From Nitrospirota bacterium (GTDB taxonomy: Bacteria; Nitrospirota; Thermodesulfovibrionia; SZUA-242), in the NCBI GenBank assembly GCA_027021335.1, contig JALUUO010000111.1:498-64497 (forward strand): a DNA stretch of 64,000 bases, given 5' to 3'. The notes beneath the pieces were generated by a model. That model saw nothing but the letters and a program-made list of their open reading frames with translations. It had not been told where the DNA came from and did no database searches. Positions 8,980-64,000 of the stretch are shown here, piece by piece. How positions within the stretch are numbered: the stretch's first letter is position 1; every line of letters begins with the position of its first letter. A program made the position numbers and the translations under genes.

Positions 8980-11396
8980 TTCAAGCCCCTCTCTTTCACG
9001 ATTCGTGGCGTAATAAAAATCAGCAGCTCAGTAATCTCATCAATTTTACTGCTGGACTTAAACAGCCAGCCAAACCCTGGAATATCTCCAAGAATAGGGA
9101 TTTTAGTTTCACGCTCGGTAAAGTCCTTGGTGTATATCCCTCCTATCACTATTGTATCCCCATCCTTAACCAGCGCCTGCGAGGTCACCTCGTTCAAATC
9201 AATGCTGGGACCATCTGGCGTATTAACACCAACTGCGTTGCGGGTAACAAGCAGTTTCAGTTGAATATATCCGCCTGGCGTGATCTTAGGCGTAACCTTA
9301 AGACTCAAAGTGGCATCAACAAACTCTGTCTGTGTGCCCTCCTGGGAAACCGACTTATACGGAATTTGCGTACCCTGCTTAACCTCTGCCTCTTCATTGT
9401 CCATGGTCATTATTCTGGGATTCGAAAGCGTTCTGCCTCCATTTAATTCCTCTAAAGCAGCCAGCTGTACATCCAGGGTAAGAGCATCAGCTATACTTCC
9501 AAGGGATATGGACATATTCGGGTCTATGCCTCCAAATCCCACATTGGTTGCCAGAGATCCACCTATCCTGTTTGGAAACTGCACACCGGTAGGGTTGCCA
9601 TGAGCGGCATCCAAATTCAATGTTCCAGACCAGTCGATTCCCAGATCCTTTGCAGTGCTGGTTCTTATGGTGACCATCCGGGCTTCTATCAGAACCTGCT
9701 GCTTGGGAATGTCTATTATTTTGACAAGGTCCATCAGCTTATCTATGCTTTCCTGGACATCCTGAATGATTATCATATTCATTCTTTTATCCACACTTAT
9801 ACGCCCTCTTGTTGTCATTATCTTACCCTGCCTAAGTGACGTATAAACATCCTGTGCATTTGCATAGTTTAATGCAATTGCACGCTGATATAGTTCTCCG
9901 GCTCTGAGCTTAGAGTCCCTGCTTTTGGCAACAGTATCCTGTTCACTGGCAAAAATTTCCGGTGGAGCAACCCTAAGAATGTTACCCTCGATCACCTTCT
10001 TCTGTCCGGACAACTTAAGAACAATGTCCAAAGCTTGATCCCAGGGAACATTCTTAAGATTCAAACTAGGAATTCGTCCTTTGACTTCAGGGTGAATAGC
10101 AAGGTTGTATCCCCCAACGTCAGCCAATAACCTGAGTATTTGAACCACATCGGCATCCTGAAAGTCTAGAGATATTCTCTTACCGGCATGAGTCATAGCC
10201 TTATCTGCCAGTGGCACAGCTTCTACCTGAGCGATATCTTTAGTTAGATCCTTTGGCTCTTCCACTACTGCCACTTCCGAACCTGCTTCAACCGTGGTGG
10301 CATCAAAAACTGCAGCAGGCGGAACTATAGAAACAATAATACCTGCCGGTCCTGTGCTAACATCATACTCGGTTGTTTCATAAAGGTCGATCACTACTCT
10401 TGTTTTATCCCTGTAAGCTCCAGCCCGTATTGCCTTTATAGGTGAAACTACAGACTCAACAGCACCGGTTACCGCCGGAGATGCCCCAGGAACATCCACA
10501 ATAATACGTCTTCTACCAACAGCGTAAACATCAGGCTCTACTTCTTTATCAGTAGCAATTTCCACATTAACCCGACCGTCAAAACTCCCAACCGTGATAC
10601 CTGTGATAGTAGAGACGGCCGGAGCACCGGCATTTTCAATCTCGGCTGAAGCGGCCACTTTTTCCTCTTTAACCACAGCTCCAACCTCGGCTGAAGATTG
10701 AGCATTTTCTTCGGCCGCGGCAAGATCGGCTTGTTCGGCCTGCCCGCCGTGAACACCTTGGTCGGACGAGAGACCATCGGCAGGCGAAGTCTGATCCGCC
10801 TCTTCCGTATGTTTCGGTTTTGCTGCTACAGCGACAATACCGGACAAGGCCTGAGCTTCAGTTTCAGGCGCTGGAGATTCTTCTTCTATCGCCGATACAC
10901 TTTCTATCGCTGGTACGCTCTCTGCTTCTGCTACAGGTGGAGAAGCAGGTACTGCCGCCGCAAGAGACTGAGACTTTGGTATTTCCAGTAATAGATGATT
11001 TCCCTCGATTCTGGGCGCAATATCGATAGGAGCCGTCAAGCCAATCTCAAAACGGGCCATAGGCGATGGAGTTTTAATCTGTTTAGGAACTATTTCAAAA
11101 ATGGAATCCTTGTCAACCAGGATTCTCTGCGTATGTTCACCTAAGTTGGCTGCCGTAAGTTCCACAACAACACGAAAAGGATCAGACGGCTTGTACATTG
11201 TAAAAACAAGCGGCATGTCTGCTTCTATGTCAATAATTTGTCTGTCGCTTTTGTCGATTACCTTAACGCTTTTGATCGAAGGACCTTGGGATACAACAGG
11301 AGTTTTTTCCACCTGAGCGCCTGCCGAGCCATAACCGGCAAAAGCAAAAATAAGAAAAAAAAGCAGAAAGAAAGACCGGGATCTATTCTTCATCAT
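8976..11396 (-). CDS. pilQ: Type IV pilus secretin PilQ
   Basis: N-terminal AMIN-like domains separated by an Ala/Glu/Pro-rich linker, a secretin N domain, and a C-terminal secretin domain (…ELLIFITPRIV). The gene follows pilMNOP. Confidence 0.9.
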   Translation of the reverse strand: MMKNRSRSFFLLFFLIFAFAGYGSAGAQVEKTPVVSQGPSIKSVKVIDKSDRQIIDIEADMPLVFTMYKPSDPFRVVVELTAANLGEHTQRILVDKDSIFEIVPKQIKTPSPMARFEIGLTAPIDIAPRIEGNHLLLEIPKSQSLAAAVPASPPVAEAESVPAIESVSAIEEESPAPETEAQALSGIVAVAAKPKHTEEADQTSPADGLSSDQGVHGGQAEQADLAAAEENAQSSAEVGAVVKEEKVAASAEIENAGAPAVSTITGITVGSFDGRVNVEIATDKEVEPDVYAVGRRRIIVDVPGASPAVTGAVESVVSPIKAIRAGAYRDKTRVVIDLYETTEYDVSTGPAGIIVSIVPPAAVFDATTVEAGSEVAVVEEPKDLTKDIAQVEAVPLADKAMTHAGKRISLDFQDADVVQILRLLADVGGYNLAIHPEVKGRIPSLNLKNVPWDQALDIVLKLSGQKKVIEGNILRVAPPEIFASEQDTVAKSRDSKLRAGELYQRAIALNYANAQDVYTSLRQGKIMTTRGRISVDKRMNMIIIQDVQESIDKLMDLVKIIDIPKQQVLIEARMVTIRTSTAKDLGIDWSGTLNLDAAHGNPTGVQFPNRIGGSLATNVGFGGIDPNMSISLGSIADALTLDVQLAALEELNGGRTLSNPRIMTMDNEEAEVKQGTQIPYKSVSQEGTQTEFVDATLSLKVTPKITPGGYIQLKLLVTRNAVGVNTPDGPSIDLNEVTSQALVKDGDTIVIGGIYTKDFTERETKIPILGDIPGFGWLFKSSSKIDEITELLIFITPRIVKERGLK

Positions 11397-41058: not shown

Positions 41059-41793
41059 ATGTTTAGCATGAAAAGTATCTATTTCTGCAACCGGCGTGGC
41101 GTATCTCTTATCGAGCTGGCTGTTGTAATTGCGATTACAGGTTTTATAGCGGCCATAGGAATTCCTCAATACAGCAGGTTTGCTGCTAAAAACAGTGTGC
41201 AAAGATTTGCAAGCGACTTGGTCCAGAATATAAGACTTGCAAAAACAATAGCTGAAAAGGAAGACAGAGAGTATTTAATAGTTTTCGACCAGGTTAATAA
41301 CAGGTACTTATTCGGCTTTGATGGAAACGGTGACGGCGATCTTCTTGACGTTACTATTGATGGATTCGGAACCTGCCAATATGATGCAAATAATAATGGA
41401 ACCATAGAAGAAACTGAAAGAACTCCGGCTAATGATCAGGATCTTAATCTCGACGGCGTGCCTGATTGCATAAGAGTTGTGAATTTAAACGATTATGGGA
41501 ACTACGTAGCAATCGGTTATCAGGAACTAGACTCAATAATGCCGCCAAACCCTCCAGATCCAGATTATCCGCCTATTCCCGCTACCGGCCTGGATTTTCC
41601 TGGTAATACTATTGTTTTTAACAATTTAGGTGCCGTTGATAGCCCGGGGTTTATTTACCTTCAGCATGCCAACACCAACAGCGGTTACAGTTACTGCGTA
41701 GCTGTAGTCGGATTCGCAGGTGGAGTAAGCATGTGGAGATGGGATGGAGATGCGGCAAGGCCAGCTGTGACAACATGGACGGAGGTAAGATGA
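41059..41793 (+). CDS. Type IV pilin-like minor pseudopilin, FimT/FimU (GspH) family, paralogue 2
   Basis: G|VSLIELAVVIAITGFIAAIGIP prepilin motif. Clear paralogue of the 40113 gene (shared ...NRIKR/VQRFA.DLVQ..RLA/TRTIA...EYL..FD...YL.GFDG.GD... and a C-terminal WRW.G). The 14-aa leader is MFSMKSIYFCNRRG. Confidence 0.7.
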   Translation: MFSMKSIYFCNRRGVSLIELAVVIAITGFIAAIGIPQYSRFAAKNSVQRFASDLVQNIRLAKTIAEKEDREYLIVFDQVNNRYLFGFDGNGDGDLLDVTIDGFGTCQYDANNNGTIEETERTPANDQDLNLDGVPDCIRVVNLNDYGNYVAIGYQELDSIMPPNPPDPDYPPIPATGLDFPGNTIVFNNLGAVDSPGFIYLQHANTNSGYSYCVAVVGFAGGVSMWRWDGDAARPAVTTWTEVR

Positions 41794-42290
41794 AACAGGG
41801 GAGGGCAGGACAAAACGGCTTCACACTTGTCGAGGTTCTTGTGGCGCTTGTAGTGCTGATATCCGGTATGCTTGGAGTAATGGGCATGCAGTACATGTCT
41901 GTGCAGGGAAACGCTACAAGCAGAAATATGAGGGTTGCCACAAATCTTGGACAAATGCAGATGGAGATGTTACAGGCAACGCCATTTAATAATCTCGCGC
42001 AAGGCAATGACTCTCCTGTGCTGGACAATTCGACATCCGGAGGTGTTGTGTTTCAAAGAATATGGTGGGTGCAGCCAAACTGTTCTGTTCTTGCATTAGG
42101 CATAAATGATGCAAATGACAACCCCGCTGATCCATGCAACCCTGCTCTTTTAGGCACGGATATCTGTGTCGTGGATCCCGACCCCGCTGCTGCAGCGCCG
42201 GTTTCGGCCATTCGTGTAAGAACCTGCTGGACCGACCGCTTCGGCAACGCTCACTCGGTAACCTTTAACGATGCCAAGAACAATCTTTAG
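41790..42290 (+). CDS. pilV: Type IV pilus minor pilin PilV
   Basis: MKQGRAGQNG|FTLVEVLVALVVLISGMLGV is the canonical PilV N-terminus. Strong GGAGGTAAG RBS. The start overlaps the stop of the preceding gene. Confidence 0.8.
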   Translation: MKQGRAGQNGFTLVEVLVALVVLISGMLGVMGMQYMSVQGNATSRNMRVATNLGQMQMEMLQATPFNNLAQGNDSPVLDNSTSGGVVFQRIWWVQPNCSVLALGINDANDNPADPCNPALLGTDICVVDPDPAAAAPVSAIRVRTCWTDRFGNAHSVTFNDAKNNL

Positions 42291-42312
42291 ACTCTGCGAG
42301 GTGGAATATATA

Positions 42313-43320
42313 ATGCGTTATAACAGAAACAATCTTGGTTATACGCTGGTGGAATTAATGGTTGCCACAGTGGTTGGAATGGTGCTGATAGCCGGAGCTA
42401 CAGCCACTTTTATCGTGCAAAACCGCTCTTATATAAGTACGGAGAGTGTCTCGGAGCTTAATTCTCAGTCGAAAACAGCCCTTAATATCATAACGGATGA
42501 TATCAGAAACGCCGGTGCCGGGACACCGTTTAACCTTTCTACAAATCCTATAAACGGACATACATCCGTTATAGAGTTTACTGACGGGGGCAATGTCGCA
42601 CCGGACTCCATTACGGTAGTAGGTGGATTCCGGGAAATAGGTAATATTACGGTTGACCCAAATACTCCGCTACAAATAGTTAACGGCAATAATATATGGA
42701 TTGCAAATGCTGCAGATCGTATAGACATAGACGACAGGAGCAACATAAACATTGACGGAACATTTTTTAGCAGAATTGTCAACTGCAACAATACAGGTGG
42801 CGTATGCACAAGTCCCGATGATTTCACGGGTGTCCTCCTAAGCCTGCCGCCCGGAGAGCTGGTCGTAAACCGGCCGGTATATCTTGTAGAAGATGTAACC
42901 TACTGCCTAAACGGCACAAATCTGTTCAGGATCAGAAGAAATGCCAATGTAGTGATCTGTACCGGTGGAGCTCAGTCTGACACGGAGCTTATAGCCCAGA
43001 ACATAGCAGATCTTCAGTTTGCTTACGCTGTTGATAATGACAATAATAGCCGTGTGGATATTGAAAAGGGCGACCCTAATATTCTCGACGATGCTGATTT
43101 CATTAATGACGGTGCTGAACTAGCAGCGCTGCAGCTAAACCCTGATACTATAAGGGCGGTAAGAGTAAGCATACTAGGCATATCAAACAGGGCAGACCCT
43201 GACATTACCACAGGAAACCCTCCAGCTATCATAGAAAACCGAGTGCATGCGGCTACCAACGACGGCTTTAAAAGACGGCTGTGGCAGACGGTTGTAATCA
43301 TGCGAAACATGCAGGAGTAA
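42313..43320 (+). CDS. pilW: Type IV pilus assembly protein PilW (minor pilin)
   Basis: MRYNRNNLG|YTLVELMVATVVGMVLIAGATATF prepilin N-terminus, ~335 aa. GAGGTGG RBS. Confidence 0.8.
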   Translation: MRYNRNNLGYTLVELMVATVVGMVLIAGATATFIVQNRSYISTESVSELNSQSKTALNIITDDIRNAGAGTPFNLSTNPINGHTSVIEFTDGGNVAPDSITVVGGFREIGNITVDPNTPLQIVNGNNIWIANAADRIDIDDRSNINIDGTFFSRIVNCNNTGGVCTSPDDFTGVLLSLPPGELVVNRPVYLVEDVTYCLNGTNLFRIRRNANVVICTGGAQSDTELIAQNIADLQFAYAVDNDNNSRVDIEKGDPNILDDADFINDGAELAALQLNPDTIRAVRVSILGISNRADPDITTGNPPAIIENRVHAATNDGFKRRLWQTVVIMRNMQE

Positions 43321-43334
43321 AGAGGAGGAATCTT

Positions 43335-43886
43335 ATGTTTACACAAAATAAAAATAGCATACAAAGTATAAAAAACGAACGCGGCTTTGTTCTCGTGGTG
43401 GCTCTTGTCCTACTGCTTGTCCTTTCGATAATCGGTGTGATGGGTATTACATCCAGCACGGTGGAAAACATTATGGTAGGCAATACAAGGCTCAGATCTA
43501 CTCACTTTTTCGAGGCAGACAGCGGAGTTCAGATAGCTATGCCTATGGTGAATCAGGTGATGGGAGATAAAAACAATGATGGATTTGCGGGTCTGATTCC
43601 TGACTTTAACATCAACGCCTTTGTTCAGGAGTTAACACTTCAGCCCTTTGCTCCGGATTGCAGAGACGATTTCAAGTTTGAGGGCAACGACGGGCTTGTA
43701 AGCGTGGACATCGACAGGATGTATAGAAGAAGGGCTGCCGGTTGTTCTATCGAATTCGCCAGTGAGGCGGATATCGCAGGCAGATGCACCAACGTGTTTT
43801 ACAGGATAAATTCTACAAGCGCCAGCGCAGAAACAGGGGCCAAGGCAACGGTAGGCACGGTTTACCGCTACGTTCCGACCAGATAG
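43335..43886 (+). CDS. pilX: Type IV pilus assembly protein PilX (minor pilin)
   Basis: MFTQNKNSIQSIKNERGFVLVVALVLLLVLSIIGV has a PilX N-terminal domain. AGGAGG RBS before the ATG at 43335. Confidence 0.75.
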   Translation: MFTQNKNSIQSIKNERGFVLVVALVLLLVLSIIGVMGITSSTVENIMVGNTRLRSTHFFEADSGVQIAMPMVNQVMGDKNNDGFAGLIPDFNINAFVQELTLQPFAPDCRDDFKFEGNDGLVSVDIDRMYRRRAAGCSIEFASEADIAGRCTNVFYRINSTSASAETGAKATVGTVYRYVPTR

Positions 43887-43918
43887 CTTTTATAAATACA
43901 AAGAGGAGATAAACAGTT

Positions 43919-44221
43919 ATGAAGATAAAGACACTAAGAATATTTCTTTCGATATTATTTATCCTTGGAACAGCCGTGTATGCCTTTCCTGAATCCCTGG
44001 GTTCCCCTGAATGGAAAGTAGGAACAATTACCGATGTAAACAGAAACTCAATAGAAATTGACGGCAAGCTCTTCATTGTAAGCGCATTAGTCGAGATCAA
44101 AACCGTCAGAGGCGAAAAACTGGGCTCCGGCCTAGAGCTTCTCACAGGAGTTGAAAGTATCTTCTTTAAAGAAAAAGATGACAAAATCGTTGAAATTCGA
44201 ATATTTAAAAGCGCTCAATAA
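43919..44221 (+). CDS. Small secreted protein (signal peptide plus ~75 aa), unknown function, between pilX and pilY1
   Basis: Strong AAGAGGAG RBS and a signal peptide MKIKTLRIFLSILFILGTAVYA. No recognisable motif. Confidence 0.5.
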   Translation: MKIKTLRIFLSILFILGTAVYAFPESLGSPEWKVGTITDVNRNSIEIDGKLFIVSALVEIKTVRGEKLGSGLELLTGVESIFFKEKDDKIVEIRIFKSAQ

Positions 44222-44232
44222 GAGGTGACGTT

Positions 44233-47200
44233 ATGAAAGCAACTATAAATAAGACGGTTCTCAAAAGTATCTGCTTACTGATTATTGTCTGCCTGAGTGC
44301 CTTTATGCTTGCTACTGATGCCACGGCAATGGGCGGCGGCGGTGGCGGCGGCGGTGGCGGCGGCATGACCAGTCCTGCCGTCATTAATCCTTCCGGCGGC
44401 GCCCTTCCAGGCGGAGAGACAGGCACACTCTACAGCACTACGATAACTGCAAGCGGATGTGACGCAAACTACCGCTGGACCTTGACAAGCGGCAACCTGC
44501 CGCAGGGCTTATCGTTTTCCGATTTTTTCAGTCAGACCATTACGATTTCCGGAATGCCTGAACTGGTTGAAACCGCGGGATTCACCCTAGAGGTGGTGGG
44601 CGACGGATGCACCAGCACCGCAGCAACATTCACACTTAACGTAGTGCAGGGCAACAATCCGGTTATCACTACCCAAGGCCTTTTATACGGGCTTGTGGGC
44701 ACTGCCTATAGCGATACTATAACAGGAAGCTTAGGCACCACCGACTACGGCTGGAGCGTGGTTGCAGGCAGCCTGCCGGCCGGCTTGGCCCTGGATTACG
44801 ATGACGCTGTTCCGCGCGTTGCAACCACTCCGTCTGTAAATTTATCCGGAACCCCGACAGTCGCCGGACTTTACACTTTTACCGTGATGGTCACAGACAG
44901 CCTGGGCAAAACCGGTTCTAAGGATTTTACAATAGATATTCAAAACGATATTCAGATCATAACATCCTCCCCTCTTCCGGATGGAATGGAAGGAGTGCCA
45001 TACTCTCTTACTTTGCAAGGAATCGGAGGCAACAGTTCATTTTATCTATGGAATATCGTCGATTTGGGCAGCGATCCCTCTCTTCTTCCAGGCTTGGGCA
45101 TAAACGAGACAACCGGTGAACTATCGGGAATACCGACCCAGGAAGGAGACTATATTTTTACCGTTGTGCTTGAGGACACTTCTAACGGTTTTGCAGTAAC
45201 AAGGGATTTTACCCTTAAAGTCTACCCTAACGATCTCGCTTTTGATACTACCGTAATTCCGCCCGATGGTGTAGCCTGTACGACTTACACTGCAAATTTA
45301 GCAGGAACAGGTGGCACCCAGCCTTATAACTGGAGCCTGACAGCCGGCCTGCTGCCTCCGGGCCTGACACTGGCTGCCAACGGAACTCCATCCACAGTTA
45401 TATCAGGAACGCCTAGAGAGGCCGGTCTATTTGCTTTTACCGTATCCCTTACAGACAATGCCGGTGTTAACAGGCAAAGAACCTTTTCGATCTCAATAAC
45501 CGGTGATCCAAGCCCGTGCAGTGTTAATCTTGATTACAATACGGCATATCCACCGTTCATCTCGACGGCTGTAACCCCTAATGTTCTTCTTATACTGGAT
45601 AACTCCGGAAGTATGTATGAATTTGCCTATAAGGACCCTGGAACATCAAATGACAGGTCAACCCGGGATGTCAGTTACACGGCAGGCGTGCCCTATTACG
45701 GTTATTTCGAGTGCGACAAGGACGGTTTGATCACGTATACCTACAATGCCGCAGAAGGCTATTTCGAGCAGACTAACGTGGCCCTTCCGGCTGCTGACAG
45801 CTTTAACGGCTGTTTTCTCAACTGGCTTACAATGAGAAGAGTGGATATTGCAAGAAAAGTTCTAACAGGAGGTAAATACGACAGCGCCAATGGTTTACTG
45901 GTCGCTGCGGAAAGACCGAACAGAAACAGGTGGAAGGGCTACGACACCCAGACTTACAGGGTATATTATGATACAACAATAAGCAATTATGAACTGATAC
46001 GTGTCTGTACTGACGGAAGCAGCGGCAATTGCGATACCGGAGACGGCACATTTTATAACGTCAGGGTTAAAGTCAACAGCGAACCAAAAGGCATAATACA
46101 GGAAACTTACTCCCTTGTAAGGTGGGGCCTTATGTTTTTTAATACCTATGAGGGTGGATATCTAGATGTACCTTTGGATGGAGGGCCGCCGACAGAGCCT
46201 CCTCTTCCTCCAATCGATCCTGACCACTTAAACACCCTTGTTGAAGCTATACGAACCACGAACCCGACCACATGGACACCACTGGCCGAAACGCTTTACG
46301 AAGCCACAAGATATTACCAGCGTGAGGTCTCTGCCTATAACGGCGGCGTGGATTATTCCACATACCCTGATCCCATGCAGTTCGACTGCCAGAAGAACTT
46401 TGTGCTTCTGCTTACGGACGGTGAATCAAGCAAGGACGAAAATCTTCCTAACTCATGCCTGGGCGGCTCAGTCACCGACACAAATTTCGATATTCAGGAA
46501 TACATGACCAGAATCGCGGATAACGAGGGACCCTCACTTGATAACGGACTGGGCATAGGCATAACCTGGGGTGACCAGGCTTGTCAAAACGCCAACAGCA
46601 TTGACGGCACGTTTTATCTCGAAGGCGTGGCATACTATGCCAACACAAACGATATGAGACCCGATCTAGCCGGTGATCAGTTCGTTAAAACCTATACCGT
46701 TTTTGCATTCGACGAATCCCCTATCGGAGCCGGAATTCTGCAAACAGCCGCCAAGTATGGAGCTTTCAAGGATTCAAACGATAACTTACCTTATCCTATC
46801 CCTGATGTAGCAGATGAGTGGGATAAGGATGCCGATGGAATCGCGGACAGATTTTTTAAGGCTTCCGAAGGTGGATCTCTTGCCGGTAAAATCAAAATGG
46901 CCCTATTTGATATTCTTCAGAAGAAGTCCTCAGGAACATCAGCTGCCGTGCTTGCAACCACATCAAAGGGAGAAAGTGCTGCATACCAGGCCTATTTTCA
47001 ACCAACCATAATGACTGCCGAAGGAACTGCTGACTGGATAGGCGGCGTGTATGGATTGTTTCTTGATAAATACGGCAATACGCGTGAGGATGACCGTGGC
47101 GACGCGAGACTTTGCTATGATGTTAATAGTCCGCCTGGCTGCACCGCACCTAACAAAATAATTCAGATGTACTACGACAATGTTGATAATAAAACTTATG

Positions 47201-49410
47201 CCAAACGGTATCCAGGCACTGTGGTGCGTAACGGTATGGGTAACGGCATGCCTACTAGTCTTCCTGACGGAACACCTACCGGTATCCCCGAGGAAAAGAT
47301 ACCGATTGATGACGTAAAAAACCTATGGAACGGCGGCAACACGCTTTGGGCAAAAAATGCCGACACAAGAAAGATATTTACGACACTGAACGGTTACGAG
47401 TTTGTCTCAGCAGAGCTGCCCAATATCGACCCTGCTACAGGCAGCACATTTTATGATGGAAATGCAGCCGAGCTGCAAGTTAAACTCGGCGCCGGAGATG
47501 CAGCCGGATCCGCCGACATAATAAACTATATAAGAGGGGTTGATATACCGGGAAACAGGCCCCGGACAATCGGAATTGACATAACCGGCGACGGCGACTT
47601 TGACGATCCAGGAGAAATTAATGTCTGGAAGCTTGGAGACATCGTGTATTCGACTCCTGTTGTTGTGACCAGGCCTAGGGAAAACTATGATTTTCTGTAT
47701 AAGGATGCCTCTTACTTCTTCTATCTGAACAAATATTTCAGTAGAAGACATGTGGTTTATGCAGGCGCAAATGACGGAATGCTTCATGCTTTTAACGCCG
47801 GCTTCTACGATGCAAGAAATCTCAGGTACTGCAAGGGAGGCGACACTGACGCCGACAGGATAATCAGTGACACGGAATGCGCAGGCTCTGGCGAGCCTGG
47901 TCTTGGCGAAGAGCTATGGGGTTTTGTGCCGCGCGGAGTTCTGCCGACCCTTAAGCTGCTTATGAACGTAGACTACACTCATGTCTACTATGTGGACTTG
48001 AAGCCTAAAACAACCGATGTGAAAATTTTCGACTGCAACAATCCACCGGACGTTCATGTAGGAGATACTTCTGATTCAGTCTGCTGGGGAACCATCCTGA
48101 TCGGCGGATTAAGATACGGCGGAAAGGCTAATCCCGAGTACTTTGCCTTGGATATAACCGATCCGCAAAATCCCAGACTGCTCTGGACGTTTTCCGATCC
48201 TGGTATGGGCTTCAGTATGTCGCGTCCGGCAATAGCCAAGACATGTGACAACGGCGGCACTTGCAAGTGGTTTGCGATATTTGGGTCCGGAGCGACAGAC
48301 TACACACCGGACTCTGATCTTACCGGATTTTCGGCTGCAAACGGCCAAATCTATGTGCTGGATCTCTCATCAGGGGTAAATGGGGTTATAAGCAACTGGA
48401 CCGAAAACACTAATTTCTGGAAAAAAGATACTGGAAAACCGGCAACATTTATGTCCGACCCTATAACTGTTGACGGGTGGCTTGATTATGCTGTCGATGT
48501 AACCTACATCGCGGAGAATTACCAAACAGGAGGTGCATGGAGCACAAGGATCCTGAAGCTCACAACAAACCGGGGAACCCTTATCGATCCATCACTCTGG
48601 ACGCTTTCATCGCTTGCTGATGTAGCTTCCATCGATACCGGCAACCTGGATAAGATCAGAAGGATAACATCAGCGCCATCCATCTCTATGGATGAACAAG
48701 AAAATATGTGGGTCTTTTTCGGAACAGGACAGTTCCTGGGCTTACAAGATAAAAACCGTACAGACACAGGAGCCTTTTATGCTGTAAAAGATAAGAGAAA
48801 CTGCTGGGACAACAACAGCTGTCCCGAGGTGACTAACCTGTATAATGTATCCAGCGACGTTATATGCCCCGAAAAAGAGCCGGGAAGCTGTACGGCCACA
48901 ACAAGCCTGGGAAATCTGGAGCTTGATATTGAGCAAAATTACGATGGGTGGGTAATGTACTTTGAGAACCTTCTTGAAACAGTGGACTTTACAGGTGCGA
49001 CCCTTCTTCATACCGGAGAAAGAGTGCTGTCTAAGCCGCTGGTTCTTGGAGGCATTGTGACATGGACGACGTTTATACCTGGTGACGAAAAGTGTAACCC
49101 TGAAGGCGAAAGTAACATATATTCGGTCTACTATAAAACAGGTTCGTCATATAAAGATTACGTTTTCAATGCACAGGCATATAAAACCAAACAAAATAAC
49201 ACACCCGAGGCTGTTGCCAGGGTAAAAAGACTCGGCCCTGGAATGGCTTCATCTCCCAGTGTGCAGGTAACAGCAAAAGGCGCTGCAAATATAACAATAA
49301 CCGATCCAAACGGACAGCTTCTGCAGTTAAGAACTACACCGGCTTTTAGAGTTGGCGACACTCCTGTTACCTCGATAAACAAAGAAATTTATGACCCGGA
49401 TTGCAACTGA
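44233..49410 (+). CDS. pilY1: PilY1-like type IV pilus tip adhesin, 1725 aa, with N-terminal He_PIG/cadherin-like repeats, a vWA-like domain and a C-terminal PilY1 beta-propeller
   Basis: Signal peptide then a Gly11 tract; 4-5 'putative Ig' repeats (…Y..T..A.GG.....W.L..G.LP.GL.L…GT…G.Y.FTV…D); a vWA MIDAS (LLILDNSGSM); the PilY1 signature VYAGANDGMLHAFNAG and a Ca-binding-like loop DITGDGDFDDPGE. Its position after pilVWX is consistent. Confidence 0.8.
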   Translation: MKATINKTVLKSICLLIIVCLSAFMLATDATAMGGGGGGGGGGGMTSPAVINPSGGALPGGETGTLYSTTITASGCDANYRWTLTSGNLPQGLSFSDFFSQTITISGMPELVETAGFTLEVVGDGCTSTAATFTLNVVQGNNPVITTQGLLYGLVGTAYSDTITGSLGTTDYGWSVVAGSLPAGLALDYDDAVPRVATTPSVNLSGTPTVAGLYTFTVMVTDSLGKTGSKDFTIDIQNDIQIITSSPLPDGMEGVPYSLTLQGIGGNSSFYLWNIVDLGSDPSLLPGLGINETTGELSGIPTQEGDYIFTVVLEDTSNGFAVTRDFTLKVYPNDLAFDTTVIPPDGVACTTYTANLAGTGGTQPYNWSLTAGLLPPGLTLAANGTPSTVISGTPREAGLFAFTVSLTDNAGVNRQRTFSISITGDPSPCSVNLDYNTAYPPFISTAVTPNVLLILDNSGSMYEFAYKDPGTSNDRSTRDVSYTAGVPYYGYFECDKDGLITYTYNAAEGYFEQTNVALPAADSFNGCFLNWLTMRRVDIARKVLTGGKYDSANGLLVAAERPNRNRWKGYDTQTYRVYYDTTISNYELIRVCTDGSSGNCDTGDGTFYNVRVKVNSEPKGIIQETYSLVRWGLMFFNTYEGGYLDVPLDGGPPTEPPLPPIDPDHLNTLVEAIRTTNPTTWTPLAETLYEATRYYQREVSAYNGGVDYSTYPDPMQFDCQKNFVLLLTDGESSKDENLPNSCLGGSVTDTNFDIQEYMTRIADNEGPSLDNGLGIGITWGDQACQNANSIDGTFYLEGVAYYANTNDMRPDLAGDQFVKTYTVFAFDESPIGAGILQTAAKYGAFKDSNDNLPYPIPDVADEWDKDADGIADRFFKASEGGSLAGKIKMALFDILQKKSSGTSAAVLATTSKGESAAYQAYFQPTIMTAEGTADWIGGVYGLFLDKYGNTREDDRGDARLCYDVNSPPGCTAPNKIIQMYYDNVDNKTYAKRYPGTVVRNGMGNGMPTSLPDGTPTGIPEEKIPIDDVKNLWNGGNTLWAKNADTRKIFTTLNGYEFVSAELPNIDPATGSTFYDGNAAELQVKLGAGDAAGSADIINYIRGVDIPGNRPRTIGIDITGDGDFDDPGEINVWKLGDIVYSTPVVVTRPRENYDFLYKDASYFFYLNKYFSRRHVVYAGANDGMLHAFNAGFYDARNLRYCKGGDTDADRIISDTECAGSGEPGLGEELWGFVPRGVLPTLKLLMNVDYTHVYYVDLKPKTTDVKIFDCNNPPDVHVGDTSDSVCWGTILIGGLRYGGKANPEYFALDITDPQNPRLLWTFSDPGMGFSMSRPAIAKTCDNGGTCKWFAIFGSGATDYTPDSDLTGFSAANGQIYVLDLSSGVNGVISNWTENTNFWKKDTGKPATFMSDPITVDGWLDYAVDVTYIAENYQTGGAWSTRILKLTTNRGTLIDPSLWTLSSLADVASIDTGNLDKIRRITSAPSISMDEQENMWVFFGTGQFLGLQDKNRTDTGAFYAVKDKRNCWDNNSCPEVTNLYNVSSDVICPEKEPGSCTATTSLGNLELDIEQNYDGWVMYFENLLETVDFTGATLLHTGERVLSKPLVLGGIVTWTTFIPGDEKCNPEGESNIYSVYYKTGSSYKDYVFNAQAYKTKQNNTPEAVARVKRLGPGMASSPSVQVTAKGAANITITDPNGQLLQLRTTPAFRVGDTPVTSINKEIYDPDCN

Positions 49411-58908: not shown

Positions 58909-58973
58909 AACATAAATTATACAATATATGTTCGTCTTTAGCCTTAGCTGTTTTGCTATAATTGTTATGCGAT

Positions 58974-60380
58974 ATGCCTGATAAAAATACAGAGAAAAAA
59001 CTTGCGGCCCTTCCGTCGGTGGATGAGCTTTTAAGAACCTCGTCCGGAAGCGATTGGCTGGAGCTGTATCCAAGGAGCCTGGTGCTTCTTGTAATCCGTG
59101 AAACACTAAACAATATCAGGCGCAGAATGCTGGACGGTAAAACAGACTCCGTAGATTCACATGTTATTAATAAAACAATTTCCGAAAACCTCTACAGACT
59201 TTCCCAACCGCATTTACGCTCAGTAATAAACGCGACCGGTGTGATCCTTCACACCAACCTGGGCCGTTCACCAATCAGCCCTGCTATTTTCAAGCATGTT
59301 GCCGAAGTTTCTGCGGCTTATTCCAATCTGGAGTTTAATCTGGAACTCGGTAAGCGGGGCAAGAGATATAGTCATATAACCGGAATTCTGCGTGAGGTCA
59401 CCGGCGCCGAGGATGCACTTGTGGTTAACAACAATGCCGCAGCGGTTCTTTTGTGCCTGACCGCAATGGCTGCCGGCAAAGAGGTTATTGTCTCACGTGG
59501 AGAATTAATAGAGATAGGCGGAGCTTTTCGGATTCCTGATGTGATGAAAGCCGGCGGCGCTCTTTTAAGAGAGGTCGGCGCAACAAACAAGACCCACTTG
59601 CGTGATTACGAAAACGCCATAAGCGAGGAGACGGCTCTTCTTTTAAAGGTACATCCCAGTAACTACCGTGTGGTGGGTTTTACCCACGAAACATCTCTTG
59701 CGGAGTTGGTTGCGCTTAGCAAGTCCAGAAAGATTCCTGTAATGTACGACCTGGGAAGCGGCTCGCTTATCAACTTATCAAAGTACGGGATACCAGGCGA
59801 ACCCAGCGTGCGTGACGTTGTTTCATCCGATGTTGATCTTATAACCTTCAGCGGAGATAAGCTGCTTGGCGGCCCTCAGGGTGGAATAATCGTCGGCAAG
59901 AAAAAATACATTCAACAAATACAGCATCACCCACTAACCCGCGCCGTGCGTATTGACAAGATGACCCTGGCCGCGCTCGAAGCCACGCTCATGCTTTACC
60001 GTGATGAAGAGACAGCCATCAAAAAGATTCCCGTTCTTGCCATGCTTACCGCTCAAACTCCTGCGCTTCGCCGCCGAGCCAACCGCTTGGCTCGCAGCCT
60101 GCGTGATAAATTGGGAGAAAAAGCCACGGTTTCGGTTGTTAAGGAAACCTCTCAATCAGGCGGCGGCTCTCTTCCGGAACAGAACATGGAAACCTTTGCT
60201 GTTACCGTACGGCCGCAAAAACAGACTGTTTCTTCCCTGGAGAAAAAGCTCCGTCTTGGCAAGCCTCCGGTTGTGGCCAGGGTTAAAGACGACGCTGTTA
60301 TTCTTGATGTTCGTACTTTGCTGGATGATGAATTTTATCTGCTTGTTTCAGCCCTGAATTCAGCGATACCAGAAGAATAG
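58974..60380 (+). CDS. selA: L-seryl-tRNA(Sec) selenium transferase (selenocysteine synthase)
   Basis: LPSVDELL N-terminal motif like E. coli LPAIDRLL; PLP-Lys region [21 protein letters not shown]. The ORF track starts at the TTG at 58962; the ATG at 58974 is preferred. Confidence 0.85.
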
Positions 60381-61243: not shown

Positions 61244-63514
61244 TTACTGCGTAGTAAATGTCCTTATCCGGCTCTCTGTGCTTCCTCCGTTACCGTCTTT
61301 TGCCACCACTTTCCATTTATAGGTAGTATTTGGCTGAAATCCTGTTCCCGTATATGTTTCATAGCCTTCGTCATACCCGCCGTTGCCTGTATCTTCTCCA
61401 CCACCGCATGAGATAAACAGCATACTGCTTGTTATGGCCGCGACTGCAAAAATCATTAACATCTTTCTTCTTCCATCTCCAAGAAGAGCTGCTGCCAGCA
61501 TAAATAGGCCAAAGCCGCCGCCTGCATAGTAGTAGAAGCCTTTACTTTCCAGGTAAACTACTGATTCAATTTTACAGTCTGTAAAATCACGATCTTCCTC
61601 ACATGCCAAGAACTCATAAGTAACTTTGTCTCCGTCTAAATCCGTGGAAGGCGCCCATTTGAAAGTTATTGTTTCTCCAAGCCCTGTCTGTCCATCTGAA
61701 GGATAAACAAGTTCCGGAGCGGTCGGAGGATTTCCTGGCGAAGCCGTGATTCCGTCGCAGTTGTTATCAACACCGCCATCGCCATATATTTCTGTTGCGC
61801 CGGGATTAATATCCGGATCTTTATCATTACAATCGCCGCCGCATGTGGTGTAGCCATCGCCGTCAGCATCAAATCCCTCATCAACAGTACCGTCACAGTC
61901 GTTGTCTATATCGTCACACTCTTCTGTCGCACCAGGGTAGATACCTGCGTCAGTATCATCACAGTCGCCGCCACATAGCGGAAACCCGTCGTTGTCAGCA
62001 TCAGAGTCGTCATCATTACTGCTGTTACAGTCGTTATCAATAGCGTCACCACATATTTCACGGACCCCCGGATTGATGTCCGGGTCATTGTCGTTACAAT
62101 CGCCGTCACATGTTGTGTAGCCATCACCATCAACATCAAAACCCTCATCAACAATGCCGTCACAGTTGTTGTCTCGGCCGTCGCATTCTTCTGTTGCGCC
62201 GGGATTAATGTTTGGATCGCTGTCATTGCAATCGCCGCCGCATGTTGTATAGGTATCGCCGTCATCATCCAGGTTCTCATCAACATCACCATCGCAATCG
62301 TTGTCTATAGTGTCACATATTTCTATTGCACCGGGATAAACGTCTGCGTTATTGTCATCACAGTCCACAGGCCCGCAATCTCCACCCTCGATAGCATATC
62401 CGTCACAATCCACATCCGTACATGCCGCATCAATGGTTAAAAGGCGCTGATCAAGTCCGGGTTGTGTGGCATTTGGGCTAAAACCTTTTAAGCTCGTAAG
62501 TGTTGAACGAAGATTCGTTGCAGCGCCCGACCAGATATAGGTTCCCTTTGGAAGGTGCATTTTCAGATTGTATTTATTTACTACCGTGTCGGCAGGAGTA
62601 TCAATATCAATACTTTCACATTCTCCGTAAGTTCCGGTCAAAAAGCTGTATGCACCTACACATACTTCTGTTATGTCGGCATAACCCGTAATCGGGCCGT
62701 CAAAACCGGCAGAAGGCTCCATAATTGTAATTGTAAAATTCACACATGTACTATTTAGCTCGGTAGCTCCATCTATGTCCGGCGTACGAGTAAATATCTG
62801 CGGAGGTTTTTCACCCGCCGCTATAGCCTCTGTGCGCCAGATAGGCAGTCCAAGGTAGTTGCCGTCTTTATCATCTCCTGTGTTGGGAGTGCTGTTCCAC
62901 TCTTGCATACCGCCCAGGTCATTGTCCGGAATGCCGTCACTGTCAATATTAAAAAGGTTGTTAAATGATTCCGTAGTCTTGGTTCTGGCATTGTAAAACG
63001 TCTGTAAATCCATCCATGCCGCCATATAGTAACTCCTGTAACCGGTACGGGATATCAAGTAAATCTCAGTATCAAAGTTGATTACACCGGTAGCAAGAAG
63101 TTCCTCGATAATCTCTTTTACCTCTGCGGGATTTTCCGGCTTTACGTTGCTGTTTTGTGCGTTGCCGGTAATCCACCAGGGCAGAATAATAGGCAGCTTT
63201 TTGGGATCAGGCCGATTATTGACAGATTTGCCTATCATCTTAAGTGTCGGGGTTCCACTGAATGCTCTGTCCGGATCAGGAACGTCCGGATCAGGACAGC
63301 CTGGGTTATCAGCCCATGGCGGATTGCATCCGTAATACTCATCAACCGTACGTGTATCAAACATTACTGCTGTAGAGTCAGTCGCTGTCAGTGCGGCGTA
63401 AGCGTCACCGGCAGAAATACTCGTAAAAGCAGCGTACGAAAAGCGTGGCATAAATAAAAGCAACCCGGCAAATATTAGAAACATTGTAATTGTAACCGTC
63501 TTTTTGATCTTCAT
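61244..63514 (-). CDS. Secreted protein with tandem MopE-type Cys-rich 'putative metal-binding' repeats, an FN3-like C-terminal region and atypical C-terminal hydrophobic segments
   Basis: Signal peptide. At least five repeats of DxDGDGYTTCGGDCNDxDPxINPGAxExCDGxDNDCDGxVDEG. P.LVYPSDG...TFKW...DGDKVTYEF and ...TTYKWKVVAKDGNGG.S...TFTT FN3-like strands. GGAGG RBS. Confidence 0.7.
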   Translation of the reverse strand: MKIKKTVTITMFLIFAGLLLFMPRFSYAAFTSISAGDAYAALTATDSTAVMFDTRTVDEYYGCNPPWADNPGCPDPDVPDPDRAFSGTPTLKMIGKSVNNRPDPKKLPIILPWWITGNAQNSNVKPENPAEVKEIIEELLATGVINFDTEIYLISRTGYRSYYMAAWMDLQTFYNARTKTTESFNNLFNIDSDGIPDNDLGGMQEWNSTPNTGDDKDGNYLGLPIWRTEAIAAGEKPPQIFTRTPDIDGATELNSTCVNFTITIMEPSAGFDGPITGYADITEVCVGAYSFLTGTYGECESIDIDTPADTVVNKYNLKMHLPKGTYIWSGAATNLRSTLTSLKGFSPNATQPGLDQRLLTIDAACTDVDCDGYAIEGGDCGPVDCDDNNADVYPGAIEICDTIDNDCDGDVDENLDDDGDTYTTCGGDCNDSDPNINPGATEECDGRDNNCDGIVDEGFDVDGDGYTTCDGDCNDNDPDINPGVREICGDAIDNDCNSSNDDDSDADNDGFPLCGGDCDDTDAGIYPGATEECDDIDNDCDGTVDEGFDADGDGYTTCGGDCNDKDPDINPGATEIYGDGGVDNNCDGITASPGNPPTAPELVYPSDGQTGLGETITFKWAPSTDLDGDKVTYEFLACEEDRDFTDCKIESVVYLESKGFYYYAGGGFGLFMLAAALLGDGRRKMLMIFAVAAITSSMLFISCGGGEDTGNGGYDEGYETYTGTGFQPNTTYKWKVVAKDGNGGSTESRIRTFTTQ

Positions 63515-63571
63515 AAGCTCGAACCTCCAAACCAGGTAGTCGTTAACCTACTTTATAGCTTATATCCTCAC

Positions 63572-63587
63572 ATTCGTTAAAAGCAAC
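63572..63587 (-). promoter_or_regulatory. Sigma-54 (RpoN) promoter, minus strand: TGGCAC-agacg-TTGCT, ~46 nt upstream of the MopE-repeat gene start codon
   Basis: The reverse complement of 63572-63587 is TGGCACAGACGTTGCT, a near-perfect match to the -24/-12 consensus TGGCAC-N5-TTGCW. Confidence 0.55.
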
Positions 63588-63660
63588 GTCTGTGCCAGGC
63601 TTTTAACTTATTGATTTATCAAGTTTTTTAAAATTAACATATTCTAAAAACAGTAAAAAT

Positions 63661-63814
63661 GTAAAGTTTTACGACAGTATTTTTTTTAGGCTGTTTAGTC
63701 TTTATTTACAATATGTTATAAAAAACATTTCAATATTTTGATTAAAAAATAGGCAATTATTTATAGATTTCATGGAAATACAGTCAAAAAAGTGTAAATT
63801 TTTCCGACAGGTAT
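63661..63814. promoter_or_regulatory. Two copies of a ~20-bp direct repeat (GTAAAGTTTTACGACAGTAT at 63661-63680; GTAAATTTTTCCGACAGGTAT at 63794-63814) in an AT-rich region upstream of the sigma-54 promoter; candidate enhancer sites
   Basis: Read directly. The copies are ~133 bp apart and ~75-230 bp upstream of the -24 element. Confidence 0.35.
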
Positions 63815-64000
63815 AAAAAAAGGGGAGGCAATCTTTATAAACAGCTACATGTTAAAATATATAGAAACACCATAAAAAACAAGCAGTTAAAGTACGCTTA
63901 TAAACTTTTCGCGCAAGAGATACAAACCAGTTTTCCACCTTTAAGGCGTATACGTGGTTCCATGGTTTTTTCTCCGCAGGACGAACAGTGTACAGATGGA

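Follow-up and report, generated by a model that had tools for sequence, protein, structure and literature searches.

The closest described counterpart of the locus studied here is the PEP-CTERM promoter module reported by Haft, Paulsen, Ward, and Selengut (2006, BMC Biol 4:29; PMC1569441). According to that paper, PEP-CTERM genes are mostly single-gene operons with intergenic regions of >200 nt, and 99 of 167 such genes in Proteobacteria are preceded by a 17-nt "motif 1," which carries TTTACA at its 3' end and is sometimes repeated. The 3'-most copy of motif 1 is separated by 62.8 +/- 10.6 nt from a 17-nt sigma-54 motif (-24 GG/-12 GC), which in turn lies 23-221 nt (mean, 71 nt) from the start codon. 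The box was seen in Proteobacteria only, with a few copies preceding non-PEP-CTERM genes. Phylogenetic profiling of the motif led the authors to predict three regulatory proteins: PrsR, a response regulator of the NtrC family; PrsK, a kinase; and PrsT, a TPR lipoprotein. The first of these is now represented by NCBIfam model TIGR02915, "PEP-CTERM-box response regulator." In Aquincola tertiaricarbonis, pepA requires RpoN1, and its start site has been mapped to a -24/-12 promoter with a predicted enhancer upstream (PMC9850573). For Zoogloea resiniphila, work summarized in PMC9012009 describes both PEP-CTERM genes and floc formation as dependent on RpoN and PrsK-PrsR. Direct binding of PrsR to the box was not among the published results that we found, and the link between the two comes from phylogenetic profiling and genetics.

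Here, we analyze a 64-kb stretch of DNA, referred to as the window, in which a gene for a secreted protein is preceded by a pair of direct repeats and a -24/-12 element. An original prediction had read this arrangement as an enhancer-dependent promoter that serves a dedicated bacterial enhancer-binding protein (bEBP) and possibly responds to metals. Our comparisons indicate that it is very probably a sigma-54 promoter with PEP-CTERM-box activator sites. The features discussed below are collected in Table 1.

Table 1. Positions of the promoter elements and target gene in the window
Feature	Sequence	Position	Strand	Remarks
Target gene, 756-aa secreted protein		61244..63514	minus	ORF start at 63514
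Predicted 5' UTR		63515..63571	minus	Predicted from promoter position and sequence
Sigma-54 promoter	TGGCACagacgTTGCT = TGGCACAGACGTTGCT, TGGCAC-N5-TTGCT	63582-63597	minus	-24 GG / -12 GC
IHF-consensus site	AATCAATAAGTTA (consensus WATCAANNNNTTR)	63604..63616	minus	Ends 6 nt upstream of TGGCAC
Proximal activator site (PEP-CTERM box, "motif 1"), predicted	TGTCGTAAAACTTTACA	63660-63676	minus	62-nt spacer, then TGGCAC
Conserved inter-box blocks		63700..63756	minus	Shared with L002, L003, L004, L081, and L098
Inter-box block	TAACATATTGTAAATAAAG	63700-63718	minus	Conserved; second shared block also written TAACATATTGT
Inter-box block	TTGCCTA	63750-63756	minus	Half of palindrome TTGCCTA-N-TAGGCAA
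Distal activator site (second PEP-CTERM box), predicted	TGTCGGAAAAATTTACA	63793-63809	minus	133 bp upstream of proximal site

Promoter and upstream boxes

The target ORF is separated by an intergenic gap of 383 bp (63515-63897) from an upstream gene for an FmdE-like zinc-finger protein, whose end lies at 63898-63900. The region is AT-rich, as first proposed (GC content of 0.19-0.31 across 63500-63900), but the gap is shorter than the 450 bp originally assigned to it. The -24/-12 element had been described as a near-perfect RpoN match and holds up as such, being the only exact occurrence of TGGCAC-N5-TTGCW in the window, against 0.05 expected from shuffled sequences. When one mismatch is permitted, 3 occurrences are found versus 2.4 expected, and the pattern is no longer special. 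The ATG lies 67 nt past the promoter end, with a ribosome-binding site, GGAGG, at 63524-63528 on the minus strand. Judging from the position of the promoter, transcription would start at about 63571, 12 nt past the -12 C. The 5' UTR has no significant RNA structure (fold z of -1.3), and an Rfam search of the intergenic region and 5' UTR produced a chance-level match only (E of 0.28; 15 versus 127 bits); on these values, a known RNA element in either was rejected.

The direct repeats share a 17-nt core, TGTCGnAAAAnTTTACA, present in two copies upstream of the promoter. These two copies are the only box matches in the window at up to two mismatches, compared with 0.22 expected. Measured from the T of TGGCAC to the 5' ends of the boxes, the upstream distances are 79 and 212 bp, in agreement with the original estimates of about 75 and 210 bp. 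A general bEBP-activated sigma-54 promoter has its sites 70-200 bp upstream and a bending site in the interval that separates these from the promoter; the predicted boxes occupy a comparable range, and the IHF consensus stands 6 nt from TGGCAC. The proximal copy departs slightly from the box consensus in that positions 6 and 18 are both T. Among the metagenome matches listed (see below), G occupies position 6 in 76% and C occupies position 18 in 84%; position 11 holds C in 56% and T in 30%.

Conservation at homologous loci

The window is matched by contig k141_269257 (ENA ERZ27262676, 152 kb), save for 1 nt in a C run upstream of the distal box. The only relative in a set of 185,579 reference genomes, at 67% protein identity, is encoded by an uncultured Nitrospirota MAG (locus L002). 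Its upstream region carries two boxes, one at 172 and the other at 304, with a separation of 132 bp; a 61-nt spacer and then TGGCACaagcaTTGCA follow. The homologs P0001 and P0003, at about 45% protein identity, have the same upstream design. At locus L003, boxes at 2775 and 2909 and a degenerate third box are followed by TGGCATgggtgTTGCT, and at locus L004, three boxes lie exactly 133 bp apart, the last one leading after 62 nt to TGGCATgagtgTTGCT. Locus L005 ends at a contig edge and retains the box end, an IHF-like site, and the promoter. The promoter takes the form TGGCATg(a/g)gtgTTGCT at L003, L004, and L005. It is kept in all five homologous loci with upstream sequence, and two or more boxes at 132-134 bp are present in all four loci that extend far enough; the distance from box to box is 132-135 bp in L002, L003, L004, L029, and L098. 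This conservation upstream of both the ortholog and more distant homologs shows the predicted box pair and promoter to be more than a chance occurrence. The distant paralogs P0004 and P0005 (40% identity) lie in tandem gene arrays, and neither a box nor a sigma-54 promoter belongs to them individually. These arrays are situated behind a terminator-like hairpin.

The same comparison bears on whether the gene might instead use a sigma-70 promoter, with the sigma-54 match being fortuitous and the repeats serving as operators of a classical regulator. AT-rich DNA offers many -10-like hexamers, and one weak sigma-70 site can be assembled with the TTTACA of the proximal box. However, this single site compares with 2.2 expected from shuffled sequences, whereas the -24/-12 element recurs at every homologous locus counted above and most modules among the matches listed keep a constant 60-64 nt from box to promoter. 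We therefore consider transcription from a sigma-70 promoter highly improbable and retain the sigma-54 promoter as the working model.

The DNA between the boxes contains blocks shared with several related loci (Table 1), and the palindrome TTGCCTA-N-TAGGCAA is intact in the relatives and decayed in the window. The 133-bp units at L004 are tandem copies with 92% identity, and the relatives have a terminator-like palindrome within the unit, as might be seen if the repeats were functionless leftovers of tandem duplication or a dispersed repeat element. In the window, however, the units are conserved at the 17-22 nt cores alone, with the remainder diverged to chance level, and these cores stay the same both between loci whose proteins share 45% identity and in front of unrelated genes, which is the signature expected of constrained binding sites. 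An origin as functionless repeats is accordingly extremely improbable, and we continue to treat the repeats as candidate activator sites. We also considered whether the upstream 133-bp unit arose by decay of a whole box-plus-promoter module and dropped this idea because, beyond the box core, units 1 and 2 have tails that are no more similar than shuffled sequences in L001 and L002 (z of about 0) and only weakly alike in L003 and L004 (z of 1.4-2.0).

Distribution of the box in metagenomes

We scanned metagenome contigs with the exact pattern TGTCGNAAAANTTTACAYTTT (the box pattern is also written as TGTCGNAAAANTTTACA) and recovered at least 120 stretches, a count that, like those below, is descriptive of matches gathered by exact pattern and does not amount to a proper enrichment test. 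Among the matches listed, box-bearing loci range from 37 to 67% GC, and a sigma-54-like -24/-12 element follows the box in 53 of 133 occurrences, most commonly after 60-64 nt. A stricter promoter pattern yields 35 distinct modules among these matches, mostly with spacers of 61-63 nt. Complete distinct ORFs downstream of a box and promoter number 41 among the matches listed, and 32 of them encode a C-terminal PEP-CTERM signal, scored in its canonical form as VPEP, a hydrophobic helix, and a basic cluster. All 10 ORFs tested exceeded the cutoff of the NCBIfam PEP-CTERM model TIGR02595. The box is associated with PEP-CTERM genes independently of the genome in which it is found.

These results sustain the original reading of an enhancer-dependent promoter with the repeats as probable upstream activator sites, given that box, spacing, and promoter are kept in homologs down to 45% identity and that the box stands 60-64 nt before sigma-54 promoters in dozens of unrelated contigs. 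They do not sustain the accompanying proposal of a dedicated bEBP: the box is common to a widespread regulon composed mostly of PEP-CTERM protein genes, and it matches the motif assigned to PrsR in the 2006 description (PMC1569441). The putative identity of the window box with motif 1 rests on the text of that description, rather than its logo, and on the co-occurrence test with PEP-CTERM genes. Searching the literature, we found no printed letter sequence of the box, TGTCGGAAAAYTTTACACTTT, and nothing relevant under the term "lipo-invert."

Second copies of the box were counted over 131 exact boxes, allowing up to three mismatches, and only a few arrangements recur among the matches listed: direct repeats 78-80 bp apart (11 cases), direct repeats 132-135 bp apart (7 cases, including the window locus and L029), and inverted copies offset by 20-23 bp (15 cases). 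The two-box unit is also found at other genes. A contig of GCA_006240795.1 (L081), an assembly that also carries homologs of the target protein, has such a unit upstream of a 199-aa PEP-CTERM protein; one of its boxes is exact and the other degenerate, and the inter-box palindrome recurs there along with an IHF-like site and TGGCACaggtaTTGCT. Another two-box unit, at L098, precedes a non-PEP-CTERM PIG-L deacetylase/PKD protein whose ORF ends at the contig edge. A target of this kind fits a matrix and polysaccharide theme.

The IHF-type site is a recurrent part of these modules. Among the matches listed, an exact IHF consensus in the same orientation is present in 10 of the 35 distinct box-to-promoter modules, and 9 of these 10 sites sit 5-6 nt from TGGCAC; shuffled spacers averaged 0.2 and never exceeded 2. 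In the available part of the 2006 paper (PMC1569441), we did not find a fixed bending site by the -24 element described. The AT-rich repeats had been suggested to facilitate looping, but they are specific 17-nt sites, and the conserved IHF-consensus site that adjoins the -24 element is more plausibly the source of bending.

Target protein and its neighborhood

The target protein combines a signal peptide with a conserved ~350-aa N-terminal domain, repeats, and a C-terminal Fn3-like domain. The repeats are of the MopE Cys/Asp type, as had been recognized from the sequence, and match PF11617 in 5 stretches (E of 2.7e-48). The N-terminal domain has no match among Pfam, NCBIfam, or PDB sequences, and an AlphaFold model built from 7 sequences reached a pLDDT of 44, too poor for a fold search. 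The Fn3-like domain is interrupted at residues 667-703 by a TM-RRK-lipobox segment, GFGLFMLAAALLG-DGRRK-MLMIFAVAAITSSMLFISC, in which the lipobox-like part spans residues about 685-703; the segment is conserved in the ortholog. The protein has no PEP-CTERM signal by TIGR02595, and its C terminus reads ...SRIRTFTTQ.

The gene that comes next, radC, lies on the opposite strand, which makes the target gene monocistronic. The proximity of copA had suggested a metal or copper cue. The distance of about 2.3 kb is correct, but radC and selA, both on the opposite strand, intervene, and copA is absent from the orthologous locus L002, where genes for SPOR, FliW, and flagellin follow instead. At L003 and L004, a gene for a DsbA-like protein lies upstream. 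Because the copA neighborhood is not conserved, a link to copper through this gene was rejected, and metal or copper control of the predicted promoter is not supported.

Candidate regulator and host

No bEBP gene was found within the window. One NtrC-type response-regulator bEBP (L001:1038-2435) is encoded 7.5 kb upstream, outside the window, after a gene cluster for an M48 peptidase, HtrA, and FtsH; no kinase gene adjoins it. Because this gene lies on the same contig, the organism can be taken to use sigma-54. Relative to cutoff, TIGR02915 is the closest family to this protein, at 430 bits versus a cutoff of 502.6 (0.86 of the cutoff in a full-length alignment), and every equivalog cutoff was missed. 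Its homologs are named just "sigma-54 dependent transcriptional regulator" and belong to Nitrospirota/Thermodesulfovibrionales MAGs. We rejected its assignment as PrsR on account of the score below the NCBI cutoff, the generic names of its homologs, and the lack of a kinase gene beside it; the bEBP in L100 was likewise rejected as PrsR. Genes for PrsK, PrsR, PrsT, exosortase, and PEP-CTERM proteins were not found in the 82 kb inspected of the 152-kb contig. The cognate activator is presumably encoded elsewhere, and this is the weakest link of our explanation. The host itself looks like a member of the Nitrospirota, since the only reference-genome ortholog of the target resides in a Nitrospirota MAG and the homologs of the bEBP come from Nitrospirota/Thermodesulfovibrionales.

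These observations raise the possibility that the sigma-54 promoter is real and the boxes are bound by another lineage-specific bEBP, either the orphan L001:1038-2435 or an NtrC-family paralog, with envelope stress, metal, or something else as its cue. Such a reading could account for the lack of PrsR and PrsK genes in the inspected part of the contig and for a target that is not a PEP-CTERM protein, and it would draw on a regulator that is on the same contig, next to genes for an M48 peptidase, HtrA, and FtsH, and nearest to TIGR02915 relative to cutoff. However, the box is exactly as it is before dozens of PEP-CTERM genes in unrelated genomes, which argues for the same conserved DNA-binding domain, and L001:1038-2435 falls under every equivalog cutoff, has only generically named homologs, and is linked by nothing to the locus in L002-L004, while the copA synteny is not conserved either. 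Regulation by a different bEBP is therefore unlikely. The fuller statement, that the locus is a PEP-CTERM-box module in which a PrsR-type activator acts on a sigma-54 promoter, is in our judgment probably correct.

Proposed mechanism and significance

According to this model of a PEP-CTERM-box module, RpoN-RNA polymerase would form a closed complex at the -24/-12 element, and a PrsR-type response regulator of the NtrC family, in its phosphorylated state, would bind the boxes and oligomerize. Bending by IHF would allow the activator to meet the polymerase, and ATP hydrolysis would then open the promoter, so that the single secreted-protein gene is transcribed from ~63571. From an RpoN/PrsR module of this kind it would follow that the target gene is switched on together with the PEP-CTERM/exosortase extracellular-matrix regulon and not via metals.

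The module belongs to an already described class. Mildly new are its likely Nitrospirota host, a conserved target without PEP-CTERM, the fixed IHF-like site, and the few preferred box spacings. It is conceivable, although we regard it as rather doubtful, that the PEP-CTERM-box regulon in a Nitrospirota-like lineage recruited an exosortase-independent secreted family. The box would then mark a wider "matrix regulon," the internal TM-RRK-lipobox segment of the window protein and its ortholog would be an anchoring or sorting device that replaces PEP-CTERM, and the 133-bp phased two-box unit with its palindrome would represent a lineage-specific enhancer with a site for a second factor.

Our analysis places a Cys-rich secreted protein in a probable PrsK/PrsR-RpoN extracellular-matrix and floc regulon and steers experiments away from copper. 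It also supplies the letters of the box, TGTCGGAAAAYTTTACACTTT, the use of which apparently extends well beyond the Proteobacteria of 2006. The fixed IHF-type site and the preferred box spacings should help regulon prediction in metagenomes, while the current understanding of sigma-54 regulation is unchanged.

Comparison with known systems

The classical enhancer promoters of the NtrC/NifA type with IHF, such as glnAp2 and nifH, resemble the window locus in having sites about 80-210 bp upstream, an IHF-type site between, and a -24/-12 element. The site sequence differs, however. The outer dyad of both boxes in the window is TGT-N11-ACA, and a NifA UAS (TGT-N10-ACA) was rejected on this difference. 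The GlrR site is TGTC-N10-GACA, which the boxes do not fit by inspection. Furthermore, the sites are adjacent in NtrC/NifA-type promoters and 133 bp apart in the window, where, unlike in these promoters, the IHF core abuts the -24 element.

The pepA promoters of A. tertiaricarbonis RN12 and Z. resiniphila MMB are more alike in content: each combines a -24/-12 element and a predicted upstream enhancer with a single gene for a secreted, matrix-associated protein. They are experimentally verified and drive PEP-CTERM genes in Betaproteobacteria, whereas the window locus is known from sequence alone.

The closest likeness is to the module of Haft et al. (PMC1569441). The window shares with it a 17-nt box that ends in TTTACA and is repeated, a 62-nt spacer, a promoter that would correspond to "motif 2" (-24 GG/-12 GC), a distance of 67 nt to the ATG, an intergenic region of 383 bp, and a monocistronic target. 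In the terms of that account, the window differs from the typical case in a target without PEP-CTERM, a signal that is typical of the downstream genes and not obligatory; in a Nitrospirota-like host, in contrast to a set drawn from Proteobacteria only; and in the genes prsK, prsR, and prsT and that for exosortase EpsH, which were not seen in 82 kb of the contig. To the module as it appears there, the present analysis adds the IHF consensus 5-6 nt from the -24 element and the recurrent box spacings.

PEP-CTERM boxes recur in a few arrangements and within a shared 133-bp unit

Among the metagenome matches listed from the scan for the PEP-CTERM box pattern (L006 to L125), second copies of the box fall into a few recurring arrangements, as summarized in the table; one example of paired copies, in L074, reads GTAAAGTTTTCCGACA-N5-TGTCGGAAAACTTTAC. 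A 133-bp unit is found upstream of different genes at four loci and contains the box, a palindrome, and a (C/T)GTAAC...TTGT block. The palindrome, (C/T)TGCCTA-N5-7-TAGGCA(A/G), is flanked by runs of A and T and looks like a terminator. At L004, a homologue locus, the unit forms a tandem repeat whose copies are 92% identical, and in the window its palindrome has decayed.

Features and recurring box arrangements
Feature	Location	Spacing or residues
133-bp unit	L004:8513-8799	
133-bp unit	L003:2768-3023	
133-bp unit	L081:1007-1140	
133-bp unit	L098:263-398	
Second box, direct repeats	matches listed, L006-L125	78-80 bp
Second box, direct repeats	matches listed, L006-L125	132-135 bp
Second box, inverted copies	matches listed, L006-L125	offset 20-23 bp
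PIG-L/PKD/DUF7402 gene	L098:586-2481	
Orphan bEBP gene	L001:1038-2435	
CCCC tract	window ~63822-63825	
CCC tract	L001 ~9691-9693	
Minor-pilin cluster and 1725-aa ORF	window 41059-49410 (+)	
selA (head-to-head with copA)	window 58962-60380	
Split in Fn3-like domain	window 61406-61516 (-)	667-703

Genes behind the two-box module, on the matching contig, and in the window

At L098, the two-box module seen in the window also drives a gene for a secreted protein that combines PIG-L (GlcNAc de-N-acetylase), PKD, and DUF7402, its ORF truncated by the contig end; it is possibly another member of the regulon, of a non-standard kind. The matching ENA contig (L001) encodes an orphan NtrC-type bEBP about 7.5 kb past the right end of the window, with GSFTGA instead of GAFTGA. 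Its gene directly follows those for an M48 peptidase, an HtrA-like protease, and FtsH, with which it may form an envelope-stress sigma-54 circuit. The window and L001 differ by one nucleotide in an intergenic homopolymer upstream of the distal box, so the assembly or strain that gave the window is not quite the one behind L001. Elsewhere in the window, selA and copA lie head-to-head, and a cluster of genes for minor pilins of a type IV pilus (matches to N_methyl, PilW, and PilX_N) precedes a 1725-aa ORF.

Paralogues and the C-terminal region of the MopE-repeat protein

More distantly related paralogues of the target protein occur at L128, L129, and L130 in tandem arrays of MopE-repeat genes, in which every gene has a basic tail (...DRRMRRRGHRGR) at its end and a terminator-like hairpin after it. 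In the target protein itself, the Fn3-like C-terminal domain breaks off at a hydrophobic helix, which is joined by an RRK cluster and by a stretch that resembles a lipoprotein signal and ends in LFISC; beyond this the Fn3 sequence continues. This arrangement is kept in the orthologue at L002, and it weakly matches, below the cut-off (19.6 against 37 bits), the NCBIfam model NF058595, "lipo-invert putative C-terminal anchoring domain".
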